Origin: Escherichia coli | GTDB lineage: Bacteria > Pseudomonadota > Gammaproteobacteria > Enterobacterales > Enterobacteriaceae | Strand: one strand, 5' to 3' | Length of the DNA stretch: 64,000 nucleotides | Assembly: GCF_003991155.1 (NCBI RefSeq) | Contig: NZ_CP031293.1 | Shown here: positions 58,375-58,605 of the stretch, in pieces | Numbering within the stretch: the stretch's first letter is position 1 | How the letters are laid out: every line of letters begins with the position of its first letter | Translations under genes and position numbers: made by a program | The notes under the pieces: model-generated | Seen by the model: only the letters and a program-made list of their open reading frames with translations | Databases searched by the model: none | Told to the model about the DNA's origin: nothing

Positions 58375-58527
58375 GCTCGCTGTTTTGTCTCTCTTGCCGT
58401 TAAAAATTAAGCTGAATTTTATAGCATTTTTTTAACTGGCCTGTCAGGCAGTGGTGCGTTTTTCTACCGCTATTGAGGTAGGTCAATTTGCGCAGGCGGA
58501 TTATTTTGTGGCAAACACGTGTTCTTT

Positions 58528-58542
58528 TTGATTTCGCGCAAA
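58528..58542 (+). promoter_or_regulatory. Candidate FNR half-site-pair in the fdnG promoter
   Basis: TTGATttcgCGCAA resembles TTGAT-N4-ATCAA, about 65-75 bp upstream of the fdnG ATG; upstream TAC-type heptamers could be NarL sites. Confidence 0.4.
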
Positions 58543-58605
58543 AAGATTCAGAATTTTACTGTTAGTTTCCTCGCGCAGTAATACCCCTGAAAAAAGAGGA
58601 AAGCA

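Follow-up and report, generated by a model that had tools for sequence, protein, structure and literature searches.

Conserved FNR and NarL site geometry in the divergent yddG-fdnG control region of Escherichia coli

The closest described system to the region analyzed here is the fdnGHI control region of Escherichia coli K-12, in which an FNR site is placed at -42.5 and NarL heptamers at -77, -100, -109, and -124 (Babujee et al. 2012, PMC3349551). fdnG is also one of four genes for which a 7-2-7 site has been reported (MotifAdjuster, PMC2718512). Occupancy of the region by FNR in vivo has been recorded repeatedly: the peak at yddG/fdnG was recovered by all three ChIP-seq callers and by ChIP-chip and had been seen in earlier work (Myers 2013, Table S5), and yddG/fdnG was independently identified as an FNR ChIP-chip target (Grainger 2007). 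A first-pass annotation of this DNA had proposed anaerobic, nitrate-induced expression of fdnG, and this is supported by the description of the gene as "activated by FNR in NO3- and by NarL" (Myers 2013, Table 2). The narG, nirB, napF, and hcp promoters are built in a similar way, each combining an FNR site at about -41.5 or -42.5 with NarL heptamers or 7-2-7 sites. They differ from fdnG in arrangement. The 7-2-7 site of fdnG lies far upstream, at -104.5, whereas those of napF and yeaR are close to -45 (PMC4549865), and narG carries an IHF site between its activators, whereas none is reported at fdnG (PMC3688515). The locus described below is the same as that of K-12, every published element position coincides with a motif in it, and there is no substantive difference between the two. 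The fdnG control region, with its FNR and NarL elements, is already known.

We analyzed a 64,000-nucleotide stretch of E. coli DNA, referred to here as the window, in which the yddG/fdnG intergenic region occupies positions 58375 to 58605, 231 bp between divergent genes. On the minus strand, yddG (57493–58374) encodes an EamA-family amino acid exporter (Pfam EamA, E = 5.5e-16) and is transcribed away from fdnG. On the plus strand, the fdnG coding sequence (58606–61653, with its ATG at 58606) encodes, according to the K-12 annotation, the alpha subunit of formate dehydrogenase-N. The fdnG frame is split by an in-frame TGA selenocysteine codon at 59191–59193, so that two open reading frames, 58606–59193 and 59242–61653, share one frame; an Rfam scan placed a SECIS_3 element over this codon (59188–59246, 84.3 bits), and the listing of fdnG as two open reading frames is therefore as expected for a selenoprotein. 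The annotation of K-12 MG1655 gives the same flanks, yddG (b1473) and fdnG (b1474), with fdnH and fdnI next after fdnG, and 5413 of 5426 complete E. coli genomes carry the 231-bp region at 95–100% identity. The earlier identification of this interval as a yddG-fdnG divergent control region is borne out by both results. When Rfam was searched at a permissive E-value across 57400–59300, no RNA family was found in the intergenic region; an miRNA match in that scan was dismissed as meaningless (E = 0.41).

Within the species, the region is nearly uniform. It differs from K-12 MG1655 at three of its 231 bases, all outside the FNR and NarL sites: the window carries a common non-K-12 allele with C at 58493 (A in K-12) and CG at 58518–58519 (GA in K-12). 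Of 5415 E. coli records, only 4123 reach 99% identity over the whole 231 bp. The 56-nt core from the FNR region to the transcription start (58522–58577) is identical in 5214 of these records, and a 32-nt NarL segment in 5351. At the far end of the operon, downstream of fdnI and on the minus strand, we observed an open reading frame for a HigB-like toxin (63531–63809, Pfam PF05015, E = 1.4e-17) overlapped by one for an HTH_3 protein (63247–63621, minus strand), a pair that resembles a type II toxin-antitoxin system. K-12 annotates only yddM at this place, in coordinates that are not exactly aligned with the window.

To set the published positions on the sequence, a transcription start is needed, and a single +1 at 58577 fits all of the published FNR and NarL positions onto motifs in the window. 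We infer that fdnG transcription starts at this A (plus strand), 29 nt upstream of the ATG and 8 nt past the -10 hexamer, as it is the only start that gives an FNR centre at -42.5 together with heptamers at -100 and -109; the assignment draws on a secondary citation (PMC3349551) and on internal consistency. A start at 58577 is compatible with an FNR site at 58528–58541, and we encountered no mapped start that is incompatible with it. Just upstream is an extended -10 element, TGtTAGTTT (58560–58568, plus strand), with the TG at 58560–58561 and the hexamer TAGTTT at 58563–58568, and the FNR centre at 58534.5 lies 28.5 bp upstream of this hexamer. A recognizable -35 element is absent, the corresponding bases 58540–58545 reading AAAAAG. 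A scan of 58300–58700 for consensus sigma-70 promoters and terminators returned no sites. At fdnG this is because the -35 reads AAAAAG, as expected for an activator-dependent promoter; the TATAAA of yddG discussed below is likewise missed by the scan, which accepts only a -10 ending in T. The missing -35 fits an activator-dependent class II promoter.

The FNR site of the fdnG promoter, TTGATttcgCGCAA, lies on the plus strand at 58528–58541, with its centre at 58534.5 corresponding to -42.5, a class II position. The first-pass annotation had described this 14-mer as an approximation of the FNR consensus, and its coordinates proved exact: TTGATTTCGCGCAA is read at precisely these positions, 65–78 bp upstream of the fdnG ATG, and agrees with TTGAT-N4-ATCAA at 8 of the 10 positions that the consensus specifies. 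Both mismatches fall in the right half, the non-consensus CGCAA rather than ATCAA; the left half is a full match. As a single sequence this is not a rare match. In the window, 63 positions match the consensus with at most two mismatches, against 39 expected. We also scored the window with a symmetric position weight matrix built from 62 ChIP-bound sites (Myers 2013, Table S6) with the fdnG entry left out. The fdnG site scored 10.5 bits, ranking 7th among approximately 64,000 window positions, which is below the weakest of the 62 training sites (11.7 bits), and first-order Markov simulations give about six matches of at least 10.5 bits per 64 kb. The scan proposed with the original reading thus gave a mixed answer, a high rank for the fdnG site on the one hand and, on the other, a match that taken alone is at chance level; it also brought out a stronger site at 58473–58486 that the reading by eye had missed. 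Two of the seven best matches in the window fall inside the 231 bp (P ~2e-4). The site at 58528–58541 is missing from the genome-wide list of predicted sites in Myers 2013, falling below the prediction threshold of that study. A nearly identical weak 14-mer, TTGATTTAGCGCAA, is present at hcp, where it also has a GCAA right half and is ChIP-bound, and the binding of such sites elsewhere indicates that weak half-sites can work. Away from the locus, the matrix also picked out TTGATCAACGTCAC at 52113–52126, a site without ChIP binding that lies within narU and is listed by Myers 2013 under narZ, and TTGATGCACGTCAA at 27806–27819, assigned to yncL/ydcX and ChIP-bound.

The NarL/NarP 7-2-7 site, TACCGCTatTGAGGTA, lies upstream of the FNR site at 58465–58480 (plus strand) and consists of the heptamers TACCGCT and TGAGGTA separated by the dinucleotide at. 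Their centres, 58468 and 58477, correspond to -109 and -100. Compared with TACYYMT-NN-AKRRGTA, 12 of the 14 heptamer bases match (6 of 7 in both heptamers). The window holds five matches to the 7-2-7 pattern with at most two mismatches, against 2.95 expected. TAC-type heptamers had earlier been noted around 58470–58500 as possible NarL sites; the 7-2-7 repeat is real, but those coordinates clip its left heptamer, which begins at 58465. A 7-2-7-like sequence, TATCCCAAAAGGAGTA, was also seen in a distant part of the window, at 52688–52703.

Two weaker heptamers were located on the minus strand using the positions given in PMC3349551. The first, TAATCCG (58497–58503, 5 of 7 positions), corresponds to -77; we infer that it belongs to NarL, and across orthologues the minus-strand match at 58497 has a mean of 4.82 of 7 against a background of 2.61. 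The second, CACCACT (58450–58456, 5 of 7 positions), corresponds to -124, and no conservation of it outside Escherichia was seen in the orthologue alignment. As a separate observation, a conserved block, GAyTATTnnGnnG, is found at 58499–58511 (block limits 58499–58513) between the 7-2-7 and FNR sites, with gACTATTaAGgGGGC as its majority form in other genera. It overlaps the published -77 heptamer, fits the heptamer consensus poorly, and is given no assignment beyond that heptamer. A second 7-2-7 site at 58499–58513 was considered and dropped, with a mean of only 8.9 of 14 matches and 8 of 14 in E. coli. We also observed that many non-Escherichia species (loci L029, L053, L055, and others) carry AGGGGTA downstream of the FNR site and ahead of the -10, at the equivalent of 58549–58555. 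Its reverse complement, TACCCCT, agrees with the NarL heptamer consensus at every position, and the E. coli equivalent is CAGAATT; the mean heptamer match at this place is 5.03 of 7 against the background of 2.61.

We then compared the region across Enterobacteriaceae. One genome per species was scanned with the first 195 residues of FdnG, yielding 80 Enterobacteriaceae loci with 88–100% protein identity, of which 79 unique orthologous upstream regions were compared; yddG is divergently upstream of fdnG in about 74 of the 80 loci. The FNR site is present throughout, the pattern TTGATTTnnC(G/T)CAA occurring in all 79 upstream regions. Conservation is 90% or higher in each half-site, and the two bases at the centre of the spacer vary freely. 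The non-consensus CGCAA half is itself conserved, with the stronger CTCAA found in only five sequences. In an ungapped comparison anchored on the FNR site, the 7-2-7 register has a mean of 11.1 of 14 matches, against 5.18 ± 1.12 for all other registers. The score reaches at least 10 of 14 in 77 of the 79 sequences, and in 72 of these 77 the first base of the 7-2-7 site lies exactly 63 bp before that of the FNR site. The sequence of the 7-2-7 site itself has dozens of variants, among them TACCCCCttATGGGTA, TAACCCTtaGGGATTA, and TACCACTaaGGTGGTA, all of which remain within the degenerate palindrome and keep its symmetry. The 47-bp spacer between the 7-2-7 and FNR sites is only 41% identical to that of E. 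coli in the non-Escherichia loci, and the -10 block, ctgtTAGTTT, is 70–100% conserved across the 79 orthologues. Conserved sites at conserved spacing, separated by spacers of near-random identity, are what functional protein-binding sites would be expected to show when kept in a fixed geometry. At the level of sequence, this conservation, and not any single match, is the decisive evidence for both the FNR and the 7-2-7 sites.

The leader downstream of these elements varies by lineage. In Citrobacter and Salmonella (loci L008, L025, and L030), a lineage-specific insert of ~50–55 nt lies between the -10 and the ATG and adopts a stable hairpin fold (-18 to -29 kcal/mol); in E. coli the leader measures only 29 nt. 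Loci L023, L046, and L059 have longer structured leader inserts of 135–174 nt.

Collectively, we consider it highly probable (about 0.93) that the interval is the control region of fdnGHI, co-activated by FNR and NarL. Without oxygen, an FNR dimer would bind TTGATttcgCGCAA at -42.5, overlapping the missing -35, and from there would recruit RNA polymerase to the extended -10 TGtTAGTTT through class II contacts. Class II activation by FNR and CRP is well established, and it is on this basis that we propose such contacts at fdnG. The weak right half, CGCAA, would keep expression with FNR alone modest, such that full activity would need NarL, a proposal made because the suboptimal half is conserved. 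Li and Stewart are said to have found in 1992 that an up-mutation of the fdnG FNR site towards consensus raised nitrate-independent expression. With nitrate, a phosphorylated NarL dimer would occupy the 7-2-7 repeat at -104.5, together with the weak heptamers near -124 and -77, and transcription would rise. From centre to centre, the NarL and FNR sites are 62 bp apart, or about six helical turns. This distance is strictly conserved, which argues that NarL has to occupy a particular face of the DNA with respect to FNR and the polymerase.

The stronger FNR-like site, TTGAGgtagGTCAA, lies on the plus strand at 58473–58486, with its centre at 58479.5 corresponding to -97.5, and shares 8 bp with the 7-2-7 site at its right heptamer. 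TTGAGGTAGGTCAA at this position scored 15.6 bits, rank 2 in the window. Myers 2013 (Table S6) gives it as the sole site for the yddG/fdnG peak (1545292 in U00096.2, PatSer 14.43), and our search of the literature for a described FNR site of fdnG at -97.5 returned nothing relevant. The site is present in the Escherichia loci (L002–L006, comprising E. coli, E. albertii, and other Escherichia), and none of the other genera has it at that position. From its presence in Escherichia only, we read it as a lineage-specific addition and not as part of the ancestral design.

This upstream site could in principle be the one that FNR occupies in vivo, with 58528–58541 a chance near-match or a minor contributor. 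It outscores the -42.5 site (15.6 versus 10.5 bits), it alone is named by Myers 2013 for the peak, and the summit of that peak, at 1545309, is only 10.5 bp away from it and 44.5 bp from 58528–58541. We tried the summit as an arbiter between the two sites and rejected it. Among 44 single-site loci in the tables of Myers 2013, summit and site are a median of 17.5 bp apart (75th percentile, 43 bp), and their offset is at least 44.5 bp at 23% of these loci, so a displacement of 44.5 bp is within the scatter, and ChIP resolution is too coarse to separate the two sites, both of which may be bound. Against the upstream site as the sole one occupied, it is confined to Escherichia, whereas 58528–58541 is found in 79 of 79 orthologous regions from many genera. 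FNR is not known to activate alone from -97.5, and -42.5 is the stated functional position (PMC3349551). We therefore give this explanation very little credence. A weaker one still, that the FNR and NarL motifs are chance matches in AT-rich intergenic DNA and that regulation lies elsewhere or is indirect, would account for the unimpressive single-sequence statistics (63 FNR matches for 39 expected, 5 7-2-7 matches for 2.95, and about six sites of 10.5 bits or more per window) but is effectively refuted by the conservation data, with motifs and spacing kept in about 75 loci outside Escherichia and the sequence between them at near-random identity, and it also has against it the FNR ChIP peaks of two studies (Myers 2013, Grainger 2007) and the coincidence of the published functional positions with the motifs (PMC3349551).

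With FNR at -42.5 and NarL at -104.5 as the preferred arrangement, the upstream site may have a role of its own. Upstream FNR sites at comparable distances exist at yfiD (-93.5) and ompW (-81.5 and -126.5), and according to the accounts of them cited within Myers 2013 and in other literature, they modulate or down-regulate transcription. The fdnG site differs in overlapping a NarL 7-2-7 site, an arrangement that is not described for yfiD or ompW. Because of this overlap, FNR and phosphorylated NarL, if FNR binds at -97.5, are predicted probably to exclude one another there. In Escherichia, FNR in the absence of nitrate and phosphorylated NarL in its presence may thus compete for the same DNA.

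The 7-2-7 site is also placed at a regular distance from a candidate promoter for yddG. On the minus strand, we identified a candidate extended -10, TGcTATAAA (58426–58418), with the TG at 58426–58425 and the hexamer at 58423–58418, preceded across an 18-bp spacer by a possible -35, CTGACA (58447–58442). The TGnTATA motif occurs in 65 of the 79 unique orthologous regions. In 48 of these 65, the spacer between the yddG -10 and the 7-2-7 site is 41 bp (range, 40–44), with a sequence only 33% identical. With a putative start for yddG near 58411, the 7-2-7 centre would be at approximately -61.5; in derivatives of the ogt promoter, NarL activates from 7-2-7 sites at -44.5, -67.5, and -77.5 (PMC7419079). 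From this near-fixed distance of 41 bp to a conserved -10, NarL may act on the candidate yddG promoter as well, via the shared 7-2-7 site. No relevant report of NarL acting on yddG came up in a literature search. As a side observation, the expression of yddG and fdnG changes together in one RNA-seq study of Salmonella Infantis, a weak hint of co-control. That either the shared, bidirectional 7-2-7 element, through yddG, or the Escherichia FNR site at -97.5 is functionally significant seems to us unlikely at present.

As the control region was described before, one value of this analysis is as a positive control, in that a reading of FNR and NarL motifs by eye was exact to the base for the FNR site. 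What remains new is the Escherichia-only FNR site lying over the NarL site and the rigid bidirectional geometry, which suggests an action of NarL on yddG. Across the family, the spacing of the yddG -10, the 7-2-7 site, and the FNR site is fixed while the spacers are 33–41% identical, an architecture kept by geometry and not by sequence. In Escherichia, competition between FNR and phosphorylated NarL at the overlapping sites, if it does take place, would tune the basal anaerobic expression of fdnG or yddG.
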